Assembly (NCBI RefSeq): GCF_057098645.1
Contig: NZ_CM169472.1
DNA length: 64,000 nt
Reading direction: 5' to 3' (one strand)
The translations under genes were made by a program, and so were the position numbers. Within the stretch, counting starts at the first letter, position 1; each line of letters begins with the position of its first letter. The notes under the pieces are model-generated. The model ran no database searches. It had not been told where the DNA came from and saw nothing but the letters and a program-made list of their open reading frames with translations. Below, one piece after another: positions 6,585-37,905 of this stretch.

Positions 6585-6660
6585 GCCCGGATAGCTCAGT
6601 CGGTAGAGCAGGGGATTGAAAATCCCCGTGTCCTTGGTTCGATTCCGAGTCCGGGCACCA
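6585..6660 (+). tRNA. pheV: tRNA-Phe (GAA anticodon)
   Basis: 76 nt GCCCGGATAGCTCAGTCGGTAGAGCAGGGGATTGAAAATCCCCGTGTCCTTGGTTCGATTCCGAGTCCGGGCACCA; cloverleaf with GAA anticodon in the loop; called pheV by synteny with yqgA. Confidence 0.95.
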
Positions 6661-6857: not shown

Positions 6858-8120
6858 ATGGCACTGACTGACGCAAAAATCCGGGCTGCAAAGCCCACTG
6901 ACAAGGCTTATAAACTCACTGACGGGGCCGGCATGTTCCTGCTGGTTCATCCTAATGGTTCCCGTTACTGGCGTCTCCGTTATCGTATTCTGGGTAAGGA
7001 GAAAACCCTGGCACTTGGTGTGTATCCCGAAGTTTCTCTCTCCGAAGCTCGTACAAAACGGGATGAGGCCCGAAAACTGATTTCGGAGGGGGTTGACCCT
7101 TGCGAACAGAAAAGAGCTAAAAAAGTAGTCCCTGATTTACAACTCTCTTTTGAACATATTGCACGACGCTGGCATGCCAGTAATAAACAATGGGCACAAT
7201 CACACAGCGATAAAGTACTCAAAAGCCTCGAGACACACGTTTTCCCCTTTATCGGCAACCGGGATATCACAACACTCAGTACCCCGGAGCTGCTTATCCC
7301 TGTTCGTGCTGCAGAAGCTAAACAAATTTATGAAATCGCCAGTCGTCTGCAGCAAAGAATATCTGCTGTAATGCGTTATGCCGTACAGTCTGGCATCATC
7401 AGATATAACCCGGCTCTGGATATGGCTGGTGCATTGACCACGGTAAAACGCCAGCATCGCCCTGCTCTGGATCTTTCACGCCTGCCTGAACTTCTGTCGC
7501 GTATTGACGGTTATAAAGGCCAGCCTGTCACCCGACTGGCAGTTATGCTGAATTTACTGGTTTTTATTCGTTCCAGTGAACTCAGATATGCCCGCTGGTC
7601 TGAAATTGATATTGACAATGCCATGTGGACTATTCCAGCCGAACGCGAACCTCTGCCAGGCGTAAAATTTTCATACCGGGGCTCCAAGATGCGAACACCA
7701 CATCTTGTGCCACTCAGCCAACAGGCTGTAGCCATACTGGCAGAACTTCAGACATGGGCAGGTGAAAATGGTCTGATCTTTACGGGAGCACATGACCCAC
7801 GTAAACCAATCAGTGAAAACACCGTAAATAAAGCCCTGAGGGTTATGGGGTATGACACAACCCAGGATGTCTGTGGTCATGGATTCCGGGCGATGGCATG
7901 TAGTGCATTAATAGAATCAGGTTTGTGGTCCCGCGATGCTGTAGAACGCCAGATGAGCCATCAGGAGCGTAATGGTGTACGTGCTGCGTATATCCATAAA
8001 GCCGAACATCTGGAAGAACGTCGACTTATGCTACAGTGGTGGGCAGATTTTCTGGATGCGAACAGAGAACAATGTATCAGCCCGTTTGAATATGCAAAGA
8101 TTAACAATCCATTAAAATAG
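6858..8120 (+). CDS. P4-type tyrosine integrase (phage/island integrase)
   Basis: 420 aa ORF MALTDAKIRAAKPTDKAYKLTDGAGMFLLVHPNGSRYWRLRYRILGKEKTLALGVYPEVSLSEAR... typical N-terminus of P4-like integrases; sits immediately 3' of a tRNA gene. Confidence 0.9.
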   Translation: MALTDAKIRAAKPTDKAYKLTDGAGMFLLVHPNGSRYWRLRYRILGKEKTLALGVYPEVSLSEARTKRDEARKLISEGVDPCEQKRAKKVVPDLQLSFEHIARRWHASNKQWAQSHSDKVLKSLETHVFPFIGNRDITTLSTPELLIPVRAAEAKQIYEIASRLQQRISAVMRYAVQSGIIRYNPALDMAGALTTVKRQHRPALDLSRLPELLSRIDGYKGQPVTRLAVMLNLLVFIRSSELRYARWSEIDIDNAMWTIPAEREPLPGVKFSYRGSKMRTPHLVPLSQQAVAILAELQTWAGENGLIFTGAHDPRKPISENTVNKALRVMGYDTTQDVCGHGFRAMACSALIESGLWSRDAVERQMSHQERNGVRAAYIHKAEHLEERRLMLQWWADFLDANREQCISPFEYAKINNPLK

Positions 8121-25973: not shown

Positions 25974-26543
25974 ATGACCTACAAATACAACCCCTTCTGG
26001 CAGCAACGTATTCGTGAGACGGTGCGGCACGCACTGGATGTTCATCCCCGCCTGACGGCATTGCGGGTTGATCTGCGTCTCCCGGATGTACCGGCAGCAA
26101 CGGACGCGGCTGTGATATCCCGCTTCATCAATGCCCTGAAAGCCCGAATCGACGCTTACCAGAAACGTAAGCATCGGGAAGGTAAACGCGTGCATTCCTC
26201 GACCCTGCATTACGCCTGGGCCCGGGAGTTCGGGGAGCTTAAAGGCAAAAAACACTATCACCTGCTGCTGCTGGTCAACCGGGATACCTGGTGTCGTGCC
26301 GGCGATTACCGCGCTCCGGGGTCACTGGCCGGAATGATTAAACAGGCCTGGTGCAGTGCCCTGGGGGTGGATGCCGGATGTTATGCCACGCTGGTGCATT
26401 TTCCGGTCAGGCCGGCGGTGTGGCTGGAACGCGATGATGAAACCGGCTTTCAGCAGGTACTGGAACGTGCTGGCTATCTGGCGAAGGAGCATACCAAAGC
26501 TCGCGGCACCGGTGAGCGCAACTTTGGCTGTAGCCGGAGTTGA
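25974..26543 (+). CDS. YagK/YfjJ-family protein (annotated in databases as inovirus Gp2-like)
   Basis: 189 aa MTYKYNPFWQQRIRETVRHALDVHPRLTALRVDLRLP...KKHYHLLLLVNRD...; family typical of CP4-like islands. Confidence 0.65.
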   Translation: MTYKYNPFWQQRIRETVRHALDVHPRLTALRVDLRLPDVPAATDAAVISRFINALKARIDAYQKRKHREGKRVHSSTLHYAWAREFGELKGKKHYHLLLLVNRDTWCRAGDYRAPGSLAGMIKQAWCSALGVDAGCYATLVHFPVRPAVWLERDDETGFQQVLERAGYLAKEHTKARGTGERNFGCSRS

Positions 26544-26795
26544 ACACGACAGACGCGCCAATACCCGGCAAACCAAAAGTATGGGTTGTTGTCTGGTGGC
26601 AACGATGTATCCACTCGCCCACTGACTGTTTTTTACGTCAGTGTTCCATTGTGTGACAACCACAATGCTGTAACAGCAACCAGCCTGCTTTACCCAAACT
26701 CCAGTCCAGATTTTAACTGAACCGCCATTCACACCTGACCACGCTGCCCGTACCGGGACGGCTGTTGCCTGCGTGTCGTCTGGCGGCTGAGGAAT

Positions 26796-27203
26796 ATGAC
26801 TATGTACGCAAAATCCTTTCTCGCACTTGATGGCAACGGGCGTCTGACGGGTGCCCGTACCGCACAGACTGCACCTTACGATCGCTACACTTGCCACCTT
26901 TGCGGCAGTGCACTCAGATACCACCCGCAATACGACACTGAGCGTCCCTGGTTTGAACACACTGACGACGGGCTGACAGCGCACGGTCAGCAGTGTCCTT
27001 ATGTCAGACCGGAACGCAGGGAGATACGCTTGATTAAGCGTCTGCAGCAATTCGTACCGGATGCCTTACCCGTGGTGCGTAAAGCCAGCTGGCACTGCAG
27101 ACAATGTCACCACGATTATTATGGGGAGCAGTACTGCACAAACTGCCAGACCGGAGGATTCAGTATTCCCCGGACAACTCGGGAGGAAATATGCGAATTC
27201 TGA
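26796..27203 (+). CDS. Double zinc-ribbon protein with CxxC...PWFEH motif (CoiA-N-terminal-like), paralog 1
   Basis: 135 aa; TCHLCGSALRYHPQYDTERPWFEHTDDG and WHCRQCHHDYYGEQYCTNCQTG; RBS gagga before the ATG. Confidence 0.6.
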   Translation: MTMYAKSFLALDGNGRLTGARTAQTAPYDRYTCHLCGSALRYHPQYDTERPWFEHTDDGLTAHGQQCPYVRPERREIRLIKRLQQFVPDALPVVRKASWHCRQCHHDYYGEQYCTNCQTGGFSIPRTTREEICEF

Positions 27204-27625
27204 ACTGTTATATGGCGAATGACAGCAAGGGGCATTTTGTTACGGCGAAAGAAGCAGCGAAGCACAACCGCCGGGACGTTTTGTGCTGTGTGTCCTGTGG
27301 ATGCCCGTTAACACTTCAGCGGGGCAATGACGGACAACAACCGTGGTTTGAACATGACCAGATGACTGTCGCTGAGAAAATCCTGCTGCGATGCACCTGG
27401 CTTGACCCGGCAGAGAAAGAGGCCCGTCGTTTGCATCTGCAGGGTATGACAGTTCTGGATTATACGGTGAAGGTGAGAAAGTGGTTTTGTGTGATGTGTG
27501 ACGAAGATTATGAAGGAGAAAAGTGCTGCCCGCGTTGTGGTACCGGGGTATACAGCAGGGCGTGGGGGCGGCAGGATGTGCCGTCGGAAGATGCCAGGGC
27601 TGATAATCCGTTACAGAGGTTGTAA
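27191..27625 (+). CDS. Double zinc-ribbon protein with CxxC...PWFEH motif, paralog 2 (overlaps paralog 1 by 13 bp)
   Basis: 144 aa from the ATG at 27191 (RBS gggagg); LCCVSCGCPLTLQRGNDGQQPWFEHDQ and WFCVMCDEDYEGEKCCPRCGTG; same motif order as paralog 1. Confidence 0.6.
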   Translation: MRILNCYMANDSKGHFVTAKEAAKHNRRDVLCCVSCGCPLTLQRGNDGQQPWFEHDQMTVAEKILLRCTWLDPAEKEARRLHLQGMTVLDYTVKVRKWFCVMCDEDYEGEKCCPRCGTGVYSRAWGRQDVPSEDARADNPLQRL

Positions 27626-29012
27626 TGGTTGCCTCTGGCGCAGTTTGCGGTGATGCCGTTCCCGGGAATGGATTGCCAGTGCGGGGACTGTGGAGCTTAA
27701 TTCCGGTGTTGGTGGCCTTTCCGTTGATTTTGAGCCAACAGCCCTCCTGTGACTGACAGGCTGCCTCGTCATTCCATACGTATCTTCAGGTGAACAGATG
27801 CATGTCTGAGCGTACTCACGCAGCCGGCCCGGCAACCGCGGTGGTACTACGCTGGCTGCGAGAAAATACAGAAAGCACCAGAATACGCTCTCCTGTTGCT
27901 GATCAATCAGGATCTCATGCACCTACCGGGATCTAGGGCTAGAACTGATGAAACCGATTCGCACCTGGCTGAGTTAATGCTACAGGCCAGGGCATCACTA
28001 CCCCCTGACGAGCACTGTACTGTGGTATGCAGTTACAGGGGGCGTGTGCAGCCACACCTGAAAGCAGTGAGTCGTTCACGGCATTCAAAAACACGTGCCT
28101 TTCGTTCGCCGTTCCTGTGATGGCCGGCATCATTTGCTAAGCCGTTACCGACGTTATTCCCTCCGGGACACGCCTCTGGTTGAGGCTTTGCCCGGAGCAA
28201 TCGAATGAAAATAAGTTAAGTCACCGAAAGGGAGGATGTAGTCAACCGGGGGAACAGTAATAAGCCGTCGTGCTTTTATCGTACAAGTGTGTTGCGTTTT
28301 GCACCGAAAATACGATAGAGGTCGTTTATGGATTCCGCAGGGAGTGCTGATTATTATTCACTGGCAGCAGACAGCGATGTGTGTGCAGGCATTCAGGGGG
28401 ATGTTGTCAGCAGAAGGGTGCGTATAGCAGATTGTTGTTATACATGGCGTATGAAGTATTACCAGTCATGCGGAGTAGTGTGGTGAGGGGCTGTATGAGA
28501 AATCGCCACCTTCTTGTCAGAGAGGGAACGCTACCATGAAAGTCAAAAGCGATAACGCAGACCGGTACGATCGGTAGGTAAAACTGTAGCGGTGTGCTGC
28601 CGCCGAGGTCAGAATAATCTGCGCGTTTTTACGCCAGCGCCACCGACGAACAGCAGGAGATTGAGGGGAATTTGGCGGCGATAAAGACGTAGAAGAGAAA
28701 AACGGGCAATTTGCCGCATGCCCACAGAATCAGTGAGATCGTTAGCGACAGCAAAATGATCGGCAGCCAGCGGCGGCCTGCAATATCGGGATGAAGGAGA
28801 TCCTACGATATCGATGCTGCACCTGATATGTACGATCAGTAAATAGAGTACGAAACAGCAAACACGACGATAATAACGCTGGCAGCGGTGCCTGTCAGGC
28901 AAACGCCCACACGCAATAAAATAAATCAACCATCGCAGGGCCGTGATCATCCGCATACACCGCTGATGACGCGTCTAAAAACGCGTCAATATGACTTCCC
29001 CGGAACATTACC

Positions 29013-30254
29013 TCATTTCAGGGTATGGAGAATTTTTAACATCGAGTTATCTATGGTCTGTTTGACTTTTTCGTAATAGATCGGTTCAGATAATGACGAA
29101 TCCCAGGTATGAATATCGTTCTTATTAAAAGGAATGCATTTCATGGCTACTGCCTTTAACTGTTTCCCTTTTTGCTCATACTCATTGATATCATTAATGG
29201 TAAATTTCAAACTCTCTTTTCTTGCTTCTGTTATTTCAGTTGGGCATACCAGCTTTATATCTCCTAAGGTAAATGTACTGACCCCGGTGATGAAAAATCT
29301 CTCGGGGATTTCTGTATAGTGCCGAGTATTCCAGATTAAGCCATTAAACATACTATGAGAATGAGTTTTATTTTCGATATAATACTGATGCGTTCTCCAG
29401 TCACTAATGCCTGAGAGACTCATTACCATATTAATGATCATATTTGGGATAGGGCGATACCACATACTGAATACAGTAATTACAACTGGTATGCATATTA
29501 AAACAACTATGAATCCAGTGAATTTATCACCATTTCTGCGCTCATTAAGATGTATGGCACCAGGCAGAATGCCAATAGTAACAATAGCTGCTGTTAAGGC
29601 AAGGAGCATTAGCATTTCAACCAAATCACTTGTCTCCTCACTAAAATCAAGTTGGGTAAGCAGAAATAACATAGGTAATATTTGAACGATCCCGGGAGTC
29701 ATAAATTGCAAGGGTAAAAAACATAACAATCCTGGTTTTCTTGGTAATTTCTCATAGTTATCAGATTTATGCCAACTAAATCTCTTTGTTTTAAATAGAT
29801 TAAAATAGGATACAAAATAACTAAAAGCAAGCATCAATACAAAACCGGTGATACTTATGGAATAACCATTCCATCCATAAAGATAGTAAATATAGTAGCC
29901 AACAATTATACTACAGCATATAAACAAGCTATTTAGATAACAAACAGTGGAAATTCGATGTGGTATGCTTGGATAATTTTTGAAATTATCTTCATGTAAT
30001 GTGTAAATGAGGATTAGAATAAAAGAGGAAATGAAAATTACTAAGCTAAACCCAGAAAACGATACTATTATAAAAACAAAAATGATACCTATGGCTGAAC
30101 TGAGGCTTACAGTATCAAAGAAAATATCTAATCTATCTATGTTTGACAGATAGAACCATATAACAGCCATTGTGCATCCAGTAATAAATGTAGATGAGGT
30201 TATTACTGAAATAATGAATTTTTTATTCAACAGCTTTATGACAGATTTATTCAT
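29013..30254 (-). CDS. AT-rich orphan gene: multi-pass membrane protein (about 8 TM) with a roughly 150 aa C-terminal soluble domain
   Basis: 413 aa ORF with strongly A/T-biased codons, unlike the surrounding DNA; hydrophobic helices through about aa 260; no recognisable catalytic motif. Confidence 0.65.
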   Translation of the reverse strand: MNKSVIKLLNKKFIISVITSSTFITGCTMAVIWFYLSNIDRLDIFFDTVSLSSAIGIIFVFIIVSFSGFSLVIFISSFILILIYTLHEDNFKNYPSIPHRISTVCYLNSLFICCSIIVGYYIYYLYGWNGYSISITGFVLMLAFSYFVSYFNLFKTKRFSWHKSDNYEKLPRKPGLLCFLPLQFMTPGIVQILPMLFLLTQLDFSEETSDLVEMLMLLALTAAIVTIGILPGAIHLNERRNGDKFTGFIVVLICIPVVITVFSMWYRPIPNMIINMVMSLSGISDWRTHQYYIENKTHSHSMFNGLIWNTRHYTEIPERFFITGVSTFTLGDIKLVCPTEITEARKESLKFTINDINEYEQKGKQLKAVAMKCIPFNKNDIHTWDSSLSEPIYYEKVKQTIDNSMLKILHTLK

Positions 30255-30884
30255 AATCCGAATTCCATACCTGATAAAATTCGTATTGTAGTGAGGACCG
30301 ATTTTTTGAGCAACTTATAACCATCGCTTAAAGCTACTTGCTACCATACATGCCGTTATCCCGAACCATAAAGCGCTTGGCAGTAACACCAACATCACAG
30401 ACAGATACTGCGGTTGCGCCAAATAAAAGAATGGCGGATAAGGTCGGCGGATTGCAACGTGATGCTGTGCTGTAGGATGACTTCTGCGGTCTCGTCCAGC
30501 GCCAGCCACTCCTGGCGGATTTTGTGTGGGGGCATGGTGTGTTCCTTTTTGTGTTGTTGGTTGCGTATAGTGCTTGTTGATGATGAAAACCGGTGTGAGA
30601 TATTTTTGCCAAAACAACTAACACTGATCAGTGTAGGTAACGAGCTTTTCAGACATAATATGGTGATGATTTACACTGGAAAAACAGGACGTAACACTGA
30701 ATAGCTCTGGAGACGATTTGCTTGAAGTGGCGTGCTATTTGTTGAAAGAAGAATTTCTGATGATACCTTATTTTAAAGGAGGCTAAAGGGAGAGGAGAGA
30801 GCCCTGTTGAAATCAACAGGACTTAATAGCTCCTCTCCGAAGGGCAAGGAGATCACCCGTGCGCCTGGTTAGGTGAAGAAGTAC

Positions 30885-32078
30885 TCAGCGTGGTTGCAGA
30901 CAGTTATCTTCTTTCCAGCCGTACAGCCACTCCATGCCGCGATAAAACTCTGCCTGCGATTTCCCTTTCCACAGCAGGTTACGAACCTGGCGTTCTACTC
31001 CCGCGGCGTGATAAACCCGTCCCATCTCACGGGTCGACCAGACAATACGCGCGGTGCGCGGAATACGTACCGACTCATACAGCGCAAAGGCTTGCGCCGC
31101 ATCACCCTCACACTGCGCCAGCGCCTTACCCAGCGTTACCGCGTCTTCCAGCGCCATACAGGCACCTTGCGCCATATATTGCGCCACTGGATGGGCTGCA
31201 TCGCCCACCAGCGTAATGCGGTTAGTGCCCCATTTCGCGACTGGTTCACGGTCGGCAGTTGACCAGCGTCGCCATGAAGTCGGTTTATCCAGCATCTGGC
31301 GCGGACGCGGGTGAATCCCCTCAAAGTAAGAGAGCACTTCCTCTTTACTGCCATCCTTCACGCCCCACTCTTCCTGCTGGCGGCTGTGGAATGTCACCAC
31401 CAGGTTATACTGCGTGCCGCCGCGCAAAGGGTAATGCACCAGGTGACAGTGCGGCCCCGCCCACAGTACCGGTGCGTTAATGCGCAAATCTTCCGGCATA
31501 TCGGCACAATCGATAACCGCACGGTAGACAACATGTCCGGTGACACGCGGCGCATCGCCCAATAAGCTCTGGCGCACCACTGACTTCACGCCGTCACAGC
31601 CAATCAGAATATCGCCGGTCCAGCTATTGCCGCGATCGTCAAACACGGTGACATCGTCTTCCGTCTCGCGAATATCCACGACGTTGGTGGAGGTGTGATA
31701 TTCCACGTCCGGATGCGTCAGTACCGCTTCCCACACCGAGGCGTGAATATCAACCCGGTGGATCACCGCGTAAGGACCGCCGAAATGGTCACGAAAGGCC
31801 TGCCCGGTTTCAATGCGCACCACTTCTTCGGCGTTCACCGCATCCATCATGGTAATGTGATCGGTAAACACCGCGCGCTGGCGGGCAACTTCGCCGACGC
31901 CGAGGCTGTCCAGCGCCGAAAACGCATTTGGCCCCAACTGGATGCCCGCGCCAATCTCACCGATCTCATGCGCCTTTTCCAGCAGCACCACTTTGATCCC
32001 CAGGCGGGCCAGTGACAATGCAGTTGCCGCACCGCCGATCCCGCCTCCCACAATTACTGCGCGTGTCACTTTCGTCAT
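30885..32078 (-). CDS. FAD-dependent aromatic monooxygenase, 3-hydroxybenzoate 6-hydroxylase-like (MhbM-like)
   Basis: 397 aa; N-terminal GGGIGG dinucleotide fold; DG and GD motifs of flavin hydroxylases; last gene of a gentisate-pathway operon. Confidence 0.8.
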   Translation of the reverse strand: MTKVTRAVIVGGGIGGAATALSLARLGIKVVLLEKAHEIGEIGAGIQLGPNAFSALDSLGVGEVARQRAVFTDHITMMDAVNAEEVVRIETGQAFRDHFGGPYAVIHRVDIHASVWEAVLTHPDVEYHTSTNVVDIRETEDDVTVFDDRGNSWTGDILIGCDGVKSVVRQSLLGDAPRVTGHVVYRAVIDCADMPEDLRINAPVLWAGPHCHLVHYPLRGGTQYNLVVTFHSRQQEEWGVKDGSKEEVLSYFEGIHPRPRQMLDKPTSWRRWSTADREPVAKWGTNRITLVGDAAHPVAQYMAQGACMALEDAVTLGKALAQCEGDAAQAFALYESVRIPRTARIVWSTREMGRVYHAAGVERQVRNLLWKGKSQAEFYRGMEWLYGWKEDNCLQPR

Positions 32079-32092
32079 TATAGTTCTCCTGG

Positions 32093-32740
32093 TCAGGCTG
32101 AAATTTTATCTTGTTGATTTTCTGGCGCTGCGGCAATGAACGCTGGCAGCTGTGTGCAGGCGTCGTACACCGCTTTGCAGCGTGGATACCCGCTCAAATC
32201 GCAGTTCATGCGTAGCGCGTTTGCCCACTGCGGGACAAGGCAGCAATCTGCCAGCGTCGGCGTCTCGCCCACACAAAATTGCCCCGACTGGTTCTGGCGC
32301 AACAGTTGTTCCACCGCGCTTAACCCTTGCTGGATCCAGTGCGCATACCAACGTTTTTTTTCTTCTTCACTGACGTTCAGTTCTTCGGTCAGGTAGCGCA
32401 GCACGCGCAAGTTATTTAATGGATGAATATCACAAGCGATGGCATAGACAATTTCCAGCACCTTGTTGCGGGCCGGTTCTTCCTGCGGCACCAGCGGAAC
32501 TTGCGGGTAGTGCCTCTCCAGCCAGTCAATAATCGCCAGCGATTGTCCGAGTGATTGGCCCTCGTCAGTCAGCAGCGTCGGCACCAGCCCGACCGGATTC
32601 ATCCGCCGATAGGCCAGTTCATTTTGCTGACCAATACGGATATTCACCCCTTCGGTCTGGTAATTAATGCCTTTCAGCGCCAGCGCAATGCGTACCCGGT
32701 ACGACGCTGAACTATTAAAAAAACTGTACAGCTTCATCAT
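32093..32740 (-). CDS. Glutathione-dependent maleylpyruvate isomerase (GST zeta-like; MhbI-like)
   Basis: 215 aa; GST N-terminal thioredoxin-like fold MKLYSFFNSSASYRVRIALALKGI... Confidence 0.8.
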   Translation of the reverse strand: MMKLYSFFNSSASYRVRIALALKGINYQTEGVNIRIGQQNELAYRRMNPVGLVPTLLTDEGQSLGQSLAIIDWLERHYPQVPLVPQEEPARNKVLEIVYAIACDIHPLNNLRVLRYLTEELNVSEEEKKRWYAHWIQQGLSAVEQLLRQNQSGQFCVGETPTLADCCLVPQWANALRMNCDLSGYPRCKAVYDACTQLPAFIAAAPENQQDKISA

Positions 32741-32745
32741 GCACC

Positions 32746-33447
32746 TCAGACAATCTTCACCGCGATAGGCGTTAAGCCCTCGACGTTGCCTGTGATCACA
32801 TCACCTTTCACTACCGGGCCAACCCCTTCCGGCGTACCGGTGAAGATCAGATCGCCCGGTTGCAGCTCAAAGAAGCCTGACAGATAGCTGATGGTTTCAT
32901 TCACCGACCAGATGAGATGGCGAATATCGCTGCGCTGATGATCTTCGCCGTTAACCTGTAACCAGATTGGCGCATTATCAATACCGCCGATATCGCGGGC
33001 TTTGTGCAGCGGCGCGATGGGCGCTGAGAGATCAAACGCTTTACCGATTTCCCACGGGCGGCCCATCTGGCGCATTTCCATTTGACGGTCACGCCGAGTC
33101 ATATCAAGACCCGTGGCATAACCCCAGACATATTCATGGGCGTGTTCCAGCGGGATATCGCTGCCTTTTTTACCAATCGCCACTACCAGTTCAATTTCGT
33201 AATGATAGTTATCGGTCTGCGCCGGATATGGCAGCGCCAGCGTTTCGCCAGCGGCGACCGGAATAACGGCATCTGCTGGTTTGCAGAAGAAGAAGGGTGG
33301 TTCACGATCCGGATCAAAGCCCATTTCGCGGGCGTGGGCGGCATAGTTACGCCCGACGCAGTAAACGCGACGCACGGGGAATTGTTTATCACTGCCAACA
33401 ACCGGTACGGTAACGGGCGCTTGTGGTTCGAATACATATTGAGTCAT
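32746..33447 (-). CDS. Fumarylpyruvate hydrolase (FAH family; MhbH-like)
   Basis: 233 aa fumarylacetoacetate-hydrolase-family protein. Confidence 0.8.
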
Positions 33448-33462
33448 TTTCTCTCTCCCAAA

Positions 33463-34491
33463 TTAATAACGCGCTTCGCGGAAAAGCCCCAGGGCTTCTT
33501 GTACCGGTCTGTCCGAAAAACTGAATAAAACGGTATCTTGCGTAGTCTGGAATGACACGCCGTGCCAGGTCGGCACCACAAAGATATCTTTTGCACTAAA
33601 GGTGAAGATTTCATTGCCGATGGTGACTTGTCCGCTACCTTCCACTACATGGTAGATAGTGCTGTCAGTGGTGCGCGCCACGCGGGAGGAGAACCCTTTC
33701 GGTAGCAGTTGCAGGAAAGCGCCCATCGACGGCATCGGATAGCCGCCGGTGACCGGGTTGACGTAGCGCATTTTGTAGCCATCCCATTCGTCGGCATCGC
33801 CCATGCGGGTTAAATCGTGCAGCACTTCGCGGCTGCGGTCATAACGATAGTTAAAGATCGGCGAGGAGTTCCCCGTCTGATGGCGCAGCGGCAACATATT
33901 GGCAGCGTAACGCGGCAGGTAATCGCCCTCTTTACGCGTTACCGGTTGTTGATCTTCCGGGTAATCTTCGGCAAAACCGCAGCCCAGAGTGTTCACTAAT
34001 GGCAGATCCAACCCATCGAGCCAGATAACCGGTTCGTCGCCAGGGTTGCCGTGATCGTGCCAGCGCCACTGCGGGGTCAGGATAAAATCGCCCTCATTCA
34101 TTGGCGTGCGTTCGCCGTCAACGGCGGTAAATGCCCCTTTGCCTTCAACAATAAAACGCAGCGCCGACTGGTTATGACGATGACTCGGTGCCACTTCGCC
34201 CGGCATGATCAGTTGCAAACCGGCATATAAAGTCGCGGTGATGGAAGACTGCCCTCGCAGCGCCGGGTTTTCCAGTACCAGCACGCGGCGCACCGCCTCT
34301 TTCGCGCCAATCAGGCTGCCGCTCTCCAGCAGCAGCGGGCGGATCTCCTGATAATTCCAGTACGCTGGCGCACAGTTAGCGTTGGGCGTTTTCGGCACCA
34401 GATGGTGCAGTGACTCCCACAGCGGGGTCAGGTTTTGCCCGGAAATATGCTGATAAAATTGTTCACGGCTATTTTGATTGTTATCAGTCAT
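33463..34491 (-). CDS. Gentisate 1,2-dioxygenase (bicupin; MhbD-like)
   Basis: 342 aa; cupin His motifs (...[14 protein letters not shown]..., ...WRWHDHGN...). Confidence 0.8.
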
Positions 34492-34502
34492 TGGGATGCT
34501 CC

Positions 34503-35861
34503 TTATTCGTTCACAACACCTGCGTGAGGCAGTGAGTCAGGGATAGAGGTCGACTGGCGAACCACGGTGATCAACAGGGTTAACATCACCGCACTGATCG
34601 CCGCAGGCACAGCGATAATGAAAAACAGGGTGTCGAAAGAGAAATTCATCGCCATCATCACGCCGCCAGACAGCGAGCCAACAATCGCGCCGCAGCGGCC
34701 CACGGCGTTTGACCAGCTCACGCCCGTGGCGCGACTTTGTGTTGGATAAAGTGTTGCGGTCAGCGCATTCAGCCCCACCTGCGATCCGCTGATGCCAATG
34801 CCGGTGCCGAAAATCGCCAGCGCCATCAGCCATAATCCATCCTGGCTTAAGCCAATCATCACGATGCATATAGCGCCTGTGGCATAGCTCAGCGCCAGTA
34901 CGCGGAAAGGATTGAACTTATCCATCAGCACGCCCAGCGCCAGCGCGCCCAACGTACCGCCAATCTGGAACGCGGCGGTAACCCAGGAGGCATGTTGCAG
35001 GTCGATGCCGCGATGGTTGAGCAGCGTTGGCATCCAGCTTGAGAGCAGGTAAATAATCAGCAAGCTCATAAAGAACACCACCCACAGCATCAACGTGATG
35101 GGTAACTGACGCCCCATAAACAGTTGACGAATGCTGCCTTTTGTAACGGAGGCTGATTCAATGAGATAAAACTGGGTATCGACATAACGCTCGCGGGTGA
35201 TGGCGCTGACGGTTTTCGCAATCACCGCCTGGGGTAGCTGGCGGCGCACTTGCCAGCGTGGCGATTCCGGCAGAACCACCAGCAGTGCAACAAACAGCAT
35301 CAGCGGTAATACGCCACCCAACACCAGGATCCCGTGCCAGCCAATCACCGGCACCAGCTGCGCGCTGACAATCCCGCCAACCGCCGAACCCAGGGTAAAG
35401 CCGCAAAACATCAGCGTCACCAGCGCGCCGCGGCGGCGGGCAGGCAGATATTCCGAGGTCATGGTGATGGTGTTCGGCATCGCGCCGCCCAGACCCAAGC
35501 CGGTGAGAAAGCGCAGGAAGACCAGAGTTTGCAGATCCGGAGAGAAAGCTGAGGCGAGGCTTAACGCGCCAAACAAAAAGACGCACAGCTCAATCACCCG
35601 CTTGCGACCAAAGCGATCGGACAACGGGCCACAAAGCAGTGCGCCTGCGGTTAACCCCAGCAGACCCGCGCCAAAAAGCGGGGCGAGATCGCCTGCGGTG
35701 AGTTGCCAGTGAGTGCGAATATCAGGGGCGATAAATCCGATAGCCGCGGTGTCAAAACCATCGAGCATTACCACCAGAAAACAGCAGATGATAACGCGCC
35801 ACTGCATCTTGCCGACCGGAGCAGCATCGATAAGTGCTTGTAGATCACGTCGTTGAGTCAT
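34503..35861 (-). CDS. MFS aromatic-acid transporter (3-hydroxybenzoate transporter MhbT-like)
   Basis: 452 aa, 12-TM MFS; first gene of the operon, divergent from a LysR regulator. Confidence 0.8.
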
Positions 35862-35987
35862 AGTAAATGCCTCAGTGCAGGTAAGGTAGATGTTTCTTTT
35901 GTTTTGTATATGTTGCGATATTGTGATTAAAGAGATGAAATGTACAATGGCATTTCGGGCAGAGAGATAACCTGGAGGTTATGGTAA

Positions 35988-36896
35988 ATGGCGAACTGGG
36001 CGCAAAAATTAAAACTACATCACCTTGAAATGCTGGTGGCGTTGGGTGAACAGGGCAATCTGACCCATGTCGCACGAATGATGAATATCACCCAACCTGC
36101 GCTTTCGAAATGGTTGTCACAACTCGAAGATGAGATTGGAATCACACTTTTTGAGCGGCACAGCAAAGGATTACGTCCGACTGAAGGCGGCAAATTGTTA
36201 TTGCAACATGCCCAACGGTTAATCAATGACATGGAGCGATCGCAACATGAACTGGCCCGTTTTAAACAAGGTGGACTGGTCGGCAGTCTGAAAATTGGCT
36301 GTTCTCCCGTCGCCACTGACTGCGTATCCCAGGCGATTTTGCATTTGCTTACGAAGATGCCAACTCTACACCTGAATATCGAAGAGAAGGTGATGACCCC
36401 ATTGCTGCAAGATCTGTTGGCAGGTTCTGTCGACGTGGTCGTTGGGCGAATTGGCGGTCGCGCCTTGCAACTGCCACTGAATTATCAGGTGCTGTACACC
36501 GAGCCAGTATGCTTTGTCGCCAGCCCTGAGCACCCACTGGCGAAATACGCCACCCTCAGTTGGAATGATCTTGCCAACTGGCGCTGGATCGTCTGGCCGA
36601 CGGGTACCCCCATTCGCATTAGTATTGATAATGCGCTGGTAGACCACGGCGTAATGCTGCCAGAAAACACGATTGAGTCGGCGTCGATGAACGTCAGTAC
36701 CAACCTGTTACAAAGCAGCGATATGATCTCTATTTTGTCATTACGCCTGGCGCAACGTTATGCCAGCCAGGGACAACTGGTGATACTCAACCTGCCAAAG
36801 ATAGAACAGAAAGGCAGCGTCGGTGTGTTCTGGCGCAATAACGAAACGCCTTCTTATGCTTTAAGTCAGTTTCTGCACTTTTTACAGCAGAATTAG
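35988..36896 (+). CDS. LysR-family transcriptional regulator (MhbR-like)
   Basis: 302 aa; N-terminal HTH (...LTHVARMMNITQPALSKWLSQLEDEIG...); divergent from the catabolic operon. Confidence 0.8.
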   Translation: MANWAQKLKLHHLEMLVALGEQGNLTHVARMMNITQPALSKWLSQLEDEIGITLFERHSKGLRPTEGGKLLLQHAQRLINDMERSQHELARFKQGGLVGSLKIGCSPVATDCVSQAILHLLTKMPTLHLNIEEKVMTPLLQDLLAGSVDVVVGRIGGRALQLPLNYQVLYTEPVCFVASPEHPLAKYATLSWNDLANWRWIVWPTGTPIRISIDNALVDHGVMLPENTIESASMNVSTNLLQSSDMISILSLRLAQRYASQGQLVILNLPKIEQKGSVGVFWRNNETPSYALSQFLHFLQQN

Positions 36897-37205: not shown

Positions 37206-37905
37206 GTGAGATGTGATCTAATTGATTGTGCTAGCAATTTCAAGGATATCACCACTATGCCTGCACGTTCATTATGCCAAAAATTCCTTAAAAACATACT
37301 GGCCACTTTGCATTTCTACCATCAAAAATCACTGATTGACGCAACAAATGCTGTAATAAATGGCGCTTCCCTCACGCTTAGCAGCATCGGGCGTCATTTA
37401 ACCAGACAGCATTAGTTAAAAACAAGATAAAGCGGGTGGATTGACCGTTGGGGAATTCTCAACTGAAAAATGATCTTCCCACCATTTTTCAGTTGGTTAC
37501 TCAAAAAAATACGCTGAGAATGTTCGTGTTGTTGTACGCCTTCGCCAGCAGTGGCAGGATGTTCAGGAGGAGTGTCGGCAGGCAGAGGTCGGATCAGGAG
37601 AGCGGCTGCGTAATGCCCTGCTGAATGTGGATTATACCACCAGTTTTGAACTGCCTTTTCGTCTGCTTTTAACCCGCACGTCACAGCTGATTGCTGTGCT
37701 TTGGGAAGAATGGGATATCAGCCAGAAAAATGTGGTGTTTAACGATAAACGCTTTGGTTGCGTGTATAGCCTGAAGGCCAGTCTTTCCGGCGTGCGGATA
37801 CATTCCGGTATCATCTGTCTCACCGTATTCGCCGGATGGTTGGGAATGAAATACATCATCGCCTTGGCAGCAGATTGCCCGGAAAGTGAAAGCGCTCCGT
37901 GAATG
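37206..37905 (+). pseudogene. IS4-family (IS10-like) transposase remnant, frameshifted and 3'-truncated
   Basis: Fragments ...SLTLSSIGRHLTRQH*, ...VKNKIKRVD*, ...IAVLWEEWDISQKN... in different frames resemble the IS10 transposase N-terminal region (TLTLTELGRNLPTKA..., NIKRIDRLLGN..., IVLVDWSDIREQKR as I recall it). Confidence 0.45.

Follow-up and report, generated by a model that had tools for sequence, protein, structure and literature searches.

The two overlapping genes analysed here, designated gene A and gene B, encode full-length members, as judged by sequence, of a catalogued enterobacterial family that combines a DUF7828 and a Zn_ribbon_11 domain. They are part of the conserved backbone of the tRNA-integrated, tyrosine-integrase islands of Enterobacterales. 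The proteins are probably island housekeeping factors rather than a toxin or defence pair, and we tentatively propose, with somewhat less than even confidence, that they bind nucleic acid as accessory proteins when the island is excised, replicated or mobilised. In length, ligands and HMM matches the family is the same as A and B, and nothing sets the two apart from it. Identical RefSeq entries and the definitions of both Pfam domains were already available; this study places A and B in a conserved module together with AlpA and a nickase-like protein, indicates that their split is old, suggests a fold link to CoiA_N and adds a conserved block upstream of gene A. The window, i.e. the whole stretch of E. 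coli DNA that was analysed, comprises 64,000 nt of contig NZ_CM169472.1 (assembly GCF_057098645.1), and all positions refer to it unless another locus is named. The genes are arranged as follows.

26802-27203, plus strand: gene A (ORF1), 133 aa, with DUF7828 and Zn_ribbon_11 domains (ORF list, Pfam, PGAP)
27191-27625, plus strand: gene B (ORF2), 144 aa, with the same two domains as gene A (translation, Pfam)
27182-27203, plus strand: A/B coupling region, with GGAGG at 27182-27186, the ATG of gene B at 27191 and the TGA of gene A at 27201-27203

A preliminary description of this DNA had reported two tandem, translationally coupled reading frames of 135 and 144 aa with a 13 bp overlap. Both reading frames exist and the overlap (27191-27203) is exact, but the first protein is likely to be 133 aa long. 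The first in-frame ATG of ORF1 is at 26796, from which the frame spans 26796-27203 and 135 aa. We take the second ATG, at 26802, as the likely start of gene A because PGAP chose it in an identical copy, because MYAKSF is the N-terminus of all gene A orthologues, and because GAGGA at 26789-26793 is better spaced for this ATG than for that at 26796. The gene A product is RefSeq WP_000271016.1, a ‘putative zinc ribbon protein’ (PGAP, identical copy), and that of gene B is WP_001221627.1, a ‘zinc-ribbon domain-containing protein’. The GGAGG lies inside gene A and ends 4 nt before the ATG of gene B. The loci of Hafnia, Superficieibacter and Yokenella and that of the Klebsiella plasmid share the overlap of 13 nt; elsewhere it measures 10 nt in Serratia, 4 nt in an E. 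coli variant (L004) and 1 nt in a metagenomic locus (L014); an overlap of start and stop is thus kept across genera, five in all. Since the ribosome-binding site and the start of gene B lie inside the end of gene A, a single message would yield both proteins, with coupled translation fixing their proportion. A scan for promoters and terminators returned as many sites as expected by chance, and a repeat search found only the shared PWFEH codons, nothing meaningful.

The proteins are indeed tandem paralogs, as had been claimed: A and B are 33% identical (BLASTP, E 1e-15) and carry the same two Pfam domains. DUF7828 (PF25165) was matched by A at 6.1e-31 over model positions 1-87 of 87 and by B at 3.1e-30 over positions 2-85, while the C-terminal match to Zn_ribbon_11 (PF11682, formerly DUF3279) had E-values of 3.4e-9 and 1.2e-18, respectively. 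The motifs read earlier were found in both proteins. They are C31-x2-C34 followed by P49-WFEH53 in A, C33-x2-C36 followed by P51-WFEH55 in B, and W-x-C-x2-C-x2-DY-x-GE-x2-C-x2-C-x-TG at the C-terminus of each. Ligand conservation was scored on an alignment of 35 diverse relatives, 34 of which match Zn_ribbon_11. In B numbering, C33, C36, F53, H55, W98 and C100 are invariant, and C68, C103, G109, C113, C116 and G119 are conserved in at least 90% of the sequences. The predicted N-terminal site is C2HC, composed of the CxxC, the His of FEH and a later conserved Cys (C65 in A, C68 in B), and the predicted C-terminal site is a C4 zinc ribbon. From these ligands we infer that both proteins bind zinc. 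The earlier term ‘double zinc-ribbon’ is only half right, because there are two zinc sites with conserved ligands but the first is C2HC and not a ribbon. An AF2 model of B computed on the 35-sequence alignment was confident (mean pLDDT 86.9, pTM 0.58) and has a β-rich N-terminal domain with short helices, one long helix and the C-terminal ribbon. A Foldseek search of AFDB50 returned matches only to family members.

In a phylogenetic tree, A-type proteins form one clade on a long branch, and B-type proteins together with single-gene relatives are more diverse; the A tree and the B tree are roughly congruent. These results indicate that the duplication is old and that both copies were retained, which argues for distinct roles of A and B. 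In the role proposed here, the two proteins would probably act as a hetero-oligomer. When A and B were joined by a 30-residue Gly-Ser linker and modelled with 10 paired sequences, the model was poor (pLDDT 62.5, pTM 0.47). Four apparent A-B fusions (P0002, P0003, P0216 and P0217) proved to be products of deletion or frameshift and hence are no evidence of interaction between A and B. We also observed that B proteins in E. coli are mosaics (L003 832-1233 and L004 6001-6420 compared with window positions 27191-27625). In some copies the N-terminal half comes from one allele and the C-terminal half from a second that is only 55-60% identical, which points to recombination between island copies inside gene B.

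The preliminary description had also likened the N-terminus to the start of CoiA-type competence proteins and noted that the nuclease body is lacking. Sub-threshold matches to Pfam CoiA_N (PF25164) were obtained with 8 of the 35 aligned members, the best at 1.3e-3, which suggests a remote relationship between the N-terminal domain and the N-terminal finger of CoiA. The CoiA protein is a PD-(D/E)XK structure-specific endonuclease that resolves transformation D-loops; it binds ssDNA better than dsDNA, cuts at ss-ds junctions, has a ‘putative C2H2-type zinc finger’ at its N-terminus and is restricted to Bacillota (10.1101/2024.02.06.579203). No PD-(D/E)XK nuclease domain (PF06054) was found in A or B, nor in the matches listed among 398 relatives, so members of the A/B family are not CoiA proteins. 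A and B also lack the CoiA C-terminal region and carry an extra C4 ribbon. CoiA belongs to competence regulons, whereas A and B reside in Enterobacterales islands; and the enzyme associated with the zinc domain is a PD-(D/E)XK nuclease in the same chain in CoiA, whereas the enzyme adjoining A and B is HUH-like.

The family is narrow in its taxonomic range and common within it. An exhaustive phmmer search of 1.84 billion representative proteins gave only 173 matches, and a profile search of 5.8 billion clusters gave 398 family members; both domains are present in all of the members listed from the latter search. Most are 127-145 aa long, and deletions or frameshifts account for the few longer, fused ones that were inspected. 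Wherever a source was named, it belonged to the Enterobacterales (Escherichia, Salmonella, Klebsiella, Citrobacter, Enterobacter, Yersinia, Serratia, Edwardsiella and Lelliottia). A scan of a genome collection with a narrower alignment recovered six loci only. At least part of the A/B pair was found in 3821 of 5426 complete E. coli genomes (∼70%), and at least 80% of the pair was covered at one place in 2982 of them; when the upstream YagK-like gene was included in the query stretch, coverage of at least 80% was seen in 2703 genomes. A genome has the pair at a median of 2 places and a maximum of 7, nearly all chromosomal. No tblastn match to the family was obtained in 50,697 phage genomes, which rules out a phage origin, and with matches in only 28 of 72,556 plasmids ‘plasmid gene’ is ruled out as a general description. 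Members in UniProt/AFDB (e.g. B7MMF4 and A0A403JX91) are often named ‘DNA-directed RNA polymerase, beta subunit/140 kD subunit’, a name that none of the Pfam, fold and context results supports; ‘Competence protein’ is the name of one member.

Could the genes be decaying remnants without a present function? Many truncated or fused copies occur in E. coli, the K-12 islands have no A or B, and the island surrounding the pair is full of insertion sequences. However, pairwise dN/dS values among copies from E. coli, Hafnia, Superficieibacter, Yokenella and Serratia, between which synonymous sites are near saturation, were 0.06-0.28 for gene A and 0.09-0.30 for gene B, indicating that both genes are real and under selection. 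Conservation extends to all zinc ligands, gene order and overlap are kept across genera, and more than half of the complete E. coli genomes have at least 80% of the pair at one place, as given above. The dN/dS values and the conservation across genera contradict random or decayed reading frames, and we regard this explanation as extremely improbable.

The island itself, and the neighbours of the pair, are defined by the following features.

6585-6660, plus strand: tRNA-Phe gene at the integration end of the island (ARAGORN)
6858-8120, plus strand: tyrosine integrase gene, also at the integration end (ORF list)
21408-21584, minus strand: AlpA-family helix-turn-helix gene (tblastn with the Hafnia and Klebsiella AlpA proteins; near-identical E. 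coli annotation)
25974-26543, plus strand: gene for a YagK/YfjJ-family (‘inovirus Gp2 family’) protein of 189 aa (Pfam YagK_YfjJ_C, 5e-46)
26715-26790, plus strand: conserved non-coding block directly upstream of gene A (alignments)

The earlier placement of A and B in an island is borne out by the adjoining tRNA-Phe and tyrosine integrase genes. In the equivalent region of O145:H28 strain RM13516 the island is flanked by speC and yqgA, and the integration site is therefore pheV. The island in the window carries fecIRABCDE, insertion sequences and a 3-hydroxybenzoate/gentisate operon. A conserved linkage with YagK/YfjJ had been put forward for a neighbourhood survey, and it was seen in every locus read: a YagK/YfjJ-type gene lies just upstream of the zinc genes on the same strand in about 20 loci from several genera. 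These comprise loci of E. coli (O145, UTI89 and two other E. coli assemblies), of Hafnia, Superficieibacter, Yokenella, Serratia oryzae and Ewingella, of a Klebsiella IncF/HI1B plasmid, and eight metagenomic or draft-genome loci with distant relatives. Among these distant relatives, single zinc genes occur at L016, L019, L020 and L022, and one gene of the metagenomic locus L014 encodes a full unit with an additional DUF7828 domain fused to it. A further small reading frame of 67 aa (25569-25772, minus strand) encodes a CxxC...CxxC zinc ribbon with a hydrophobic, probably membrane-spanning tail. Its RefSeq equivalent is a 66-aa hypothetical protein; the frame is kept between an Hha-like gene and YagK in the E. 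coli islands L001, L002, L004 and L013, and L004 has extra partial copies of it.

A motif of HYH and hydrophobic residues, together with a Y-[LM]-[AST]-K motif, is typical of HUH rolling-circle initiators and relaxases. The YagK-type protein of the window has an HUH-like HYHLLLL and a Tyr motif, YLAKE, and both the HYH and the Y-[LM]-[AST]-K motifs are conserved in 11 of 13 aligned YagK-type proteins. A weak match to Pfam REP_ORF2-G2P (2.8e-5) was also obtained. By these motifs, the YagK/YfjJ protein resembles a small nickase of the HUH type or an initiator of replication.

The position of the AlpA gene varies. At most non-E. coli loci it either separates YagK from gene A or immediately precedes YagK, and at the E. 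coli loci it is on the opposite strand a few kb off. In the window it is parted from the A/B pair by an IS21-family element with istA/istB-like reading frames (22175-24593), which sits in the backbone between the AlpA-like gene and YagK; the same interval in the annotated O145 strains RM9872 and RM13516 has no such element. The fullest module, found in Hafnia and on the Klebsiella plasmid, has the order Gp2a(YagK) - AlpA - A - B - Gp2b - DUF2913; in Yokenella and Superficieibacter the same order was seen up to Gp2b. Two copies of Gp2b, the second Gp2-like gene, which follows B directly in Hafnia, Yokenella, Superficieibacter and the Klebsiella plasmid, lie as follows.

L009, 8426-9061: Gp2b, second Gp2-like gene
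L012, 7493-8059: Gp2b, second Gp2-like gene

In Hafnia and Klebsiella the HYH and Y-x-x-K motifs of Gp2b are both lost, and it looks like an inactive paralogue of YagK. Often two Gp2-like genes occur with two zinc genes, or one with one. In the window, the ∼1.4 kb after gene B (27626-29012) contain no reading frame of at least 120 aa and no annotation in identical O145 genomes, and tblastn of this interval with the Gp2b and DUF2913 proteins gave no match. Farther downstream, 37537-37794, a DNA-binding-protein pseudogene in RefSeq, is 66% identical to a protein encoded a few genes past the zinc pair in Hafnia. With this fragment, the membrane-protein gene and the mhb/gentisate operon (29013-36896) appear as cargo in an interrupted backbone.

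Downstream of the zinc genes the content is variable: ars, Kiwa, type I restriction and conflict-system domains at other loci, and mhb/gentisate genes here. With constant content upstream and variable content downstream, the zinc genes mark the border between backbone and cargo. Islands and satellites that combine an AlpA/Vis-type excision module with a P4-type integrase, such as CP4-57 with alpA-yfjI-yfjJ, have the same backbone (an integrase at a tRNA gene, AlpA, YfjI, and YagK/YfjJ at the cargo border). Unlike the island in the window, however, K-12 CP4-57, CP4-6 and CP4-44 have no zinc-gene copy in the stretches examined, and K-12 YagK and YfjJ are only 36-38% identical to the YagK-type protein of the window. 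The border in K-12 CP4-57 falls right after yfjJ, the position that the zinc pair takes in other islands, and yfjJ there directly abuts the AbpAB anti-phage genes (L023 5548-10154). We found no study of the zinc-protein family in the literature, and the absence of zinc genes from the three K-12 island stretches may explain why none was found.

The preliminary description had guessed at a sensor/effector or toxin-antitoxin-like pair, and we extended this idea to a conflict module in general, anti-defence factors included. Two small overlapping genes within a mobile island would suit such a module, and so would the adjoining cargo, which is often defensive (KwaA and a type I restriction enzyme at L014, conflict-system domains at L016), as well as AbpAB at the same position in K-12. 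However, the toxin and antitoxin of a type II system differ from each other and are obligately paired, whereas A and B are paralogues of identical architecture and the same fold, and zinc genes also occur singly or, at L014, fused. Pfam detects no toxin, nuclease or other effector domain in either protein. Toxin and antitoxin families gave no match in Pfam, NCBIfam or PADLOC; A and B had no NCBIfam or significant PHROG match at all, and PADLOC-DB v2 had none at E<=0.1 for A, B or YagK. The family is absent from the phage genomes searched, and the pair sits in the constant backbone and not in the variable cargo, its constant neighbours being the nickase-like protein and AlpA rather than defence genes. 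We consider a conflict module improbable. The preliminary reading stands for the missing nuclease, the island and the YagK linkage, and probably for the CoiA-like N-terminal domain, but not for the proposed function.

The best-conserved stretch of the whole region is not a gene. The block at 26715-26790 is conserved above the genes downstream of it: a 30-nt window at 26740-26769 has a mean identity of 85% to five other genera, compared with 32-80% inside A and B. Its core, CTGCCCGTACCGGGACGGCTG at 26744-26764, is flanked by the inverted hexamers CCGCCA and TGGCGG and recurs with at most one mismatch in 12 other loci, among them that of the Klebsiella plasmid and one on a metagenomic contig. 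The block is non-coding, with an in-frame TGA at 26736-26738 and no canonical start between it and 26796. It accompanies the A/B pair within E. coli, where in the best copy of most genomes the block is 95-99% identical and the A/B genes are mostly 90-95% identical. Rfam has no match for it. The block may bind a protein, serve as a nick site or act as a leader.

The block bears on the main rival to the accessory-protein reading, in which A and B are transcriptional or translational regulators of island genes that act with or downstream of AlpA and perhaps control themselves through the block. Many transcription factors and RNA-binding proteins contain zinc ribbons. AlpA is just upstream or close by at most non-E. 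coli loci, the 75-nt non-coding block before gene A is conserved above coding DNA, and the near-neutral charge of A and B (pI about 6-8.5) suits binding to a protein or to a specific site. On the other hand, Pfam finds no helix-turn-helix or other known regulator domain in A or B. An RNA structure in the block is unsupported, as its fold is not significant (z -1.47) and only 2 of 22 pairs covary; a scan found no promoter-like site in it, and the single-gene relatives have no such block upstream. A regulatory role is possible, but we consider it rather unlikely.

Several observations support nucleic-acid-binding accessory proteins instead: the two conserved metal sites, purifying selection, the kept overlap, the old A-type clade and the rough congruence of the two trees, the synteny with YagK and AlpA, the often equal numbers of Gp2-like and zinc genes, the HUH-like motifs of YagK and its REP_ORF2-G2P match, the uniform domain composition and Enterobacterales range of the family members listed, and the preference of CoiA for ssDNA. 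As accessory factors, A and B would bind nucleic acid, probably DNA. Their likely partner would be the neighbouring HUH-like YagK/YfjJ protein, with which they may be in contact, and the setting would be island excision driven by the AlpA regulator. A and B might then recognise or hold single-stranded or junction DNA while the excised island replicates or mobilises. CoiA offers a possible parallel, in that the same kind of zinc domain is tied to a nuclease in one chain. Other observations count against this role. Proteins that bind DNA strongly and non-specifically are not typically so close to neutral in charge. YagK and YfjJ persist in the K-12 islands, which have no zinc genes, and consequently YagK-type proteins are not strictly dependent on the zinc genes. 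The numbers of zinc genes and Gp2-like genes are unequal in the window and at L014 and L018, and the assignment of YagK as HUH-like comes from its motifs, which the second Gp2-like gene of Hafnia and Klebsiella has lost.

A more specific form of the accessory-protein reading, which we consider unlikely, makes A and B the subunits that recognise DNA in a split nickase. Together with YagK they would nick a specific site, perhaps the block at 26715-26790, and so start rolling-circle replication or mobilisation after AlpA-driven excision. A zinc module also accompanies the HUH nickase in IS91 and Helitron transposases, where it is thought to aid DNA recognition; there it is part of the same polypeptide as the nickase, whereas A and B are separate proteins. 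If the split nickase were true, many pathogenicity and fitness islands regarded as ‘cryptic’ in E. coli and its relatives would be able to replicate themselves or be mobilised, and they would use a previously undescribed machinery of zinc fingers plus Rep.

Islands with the A/B backbone deliver virulence, iron-uptake, catabolic and defence cargo, represented here by the fec and 3-hydroxybenzoate/gentisate genes, and their excision, persistence and movement are still poorly understood. An obvious candidate for the machinery involved is the combination of AlpA, a nickase-like protein and two zinc proteins, conserved in Escherichia as well as in Hafnia, Serratia and Ewingella. The practical gain is modest and consists of a testable gene set and a candidate cis element.
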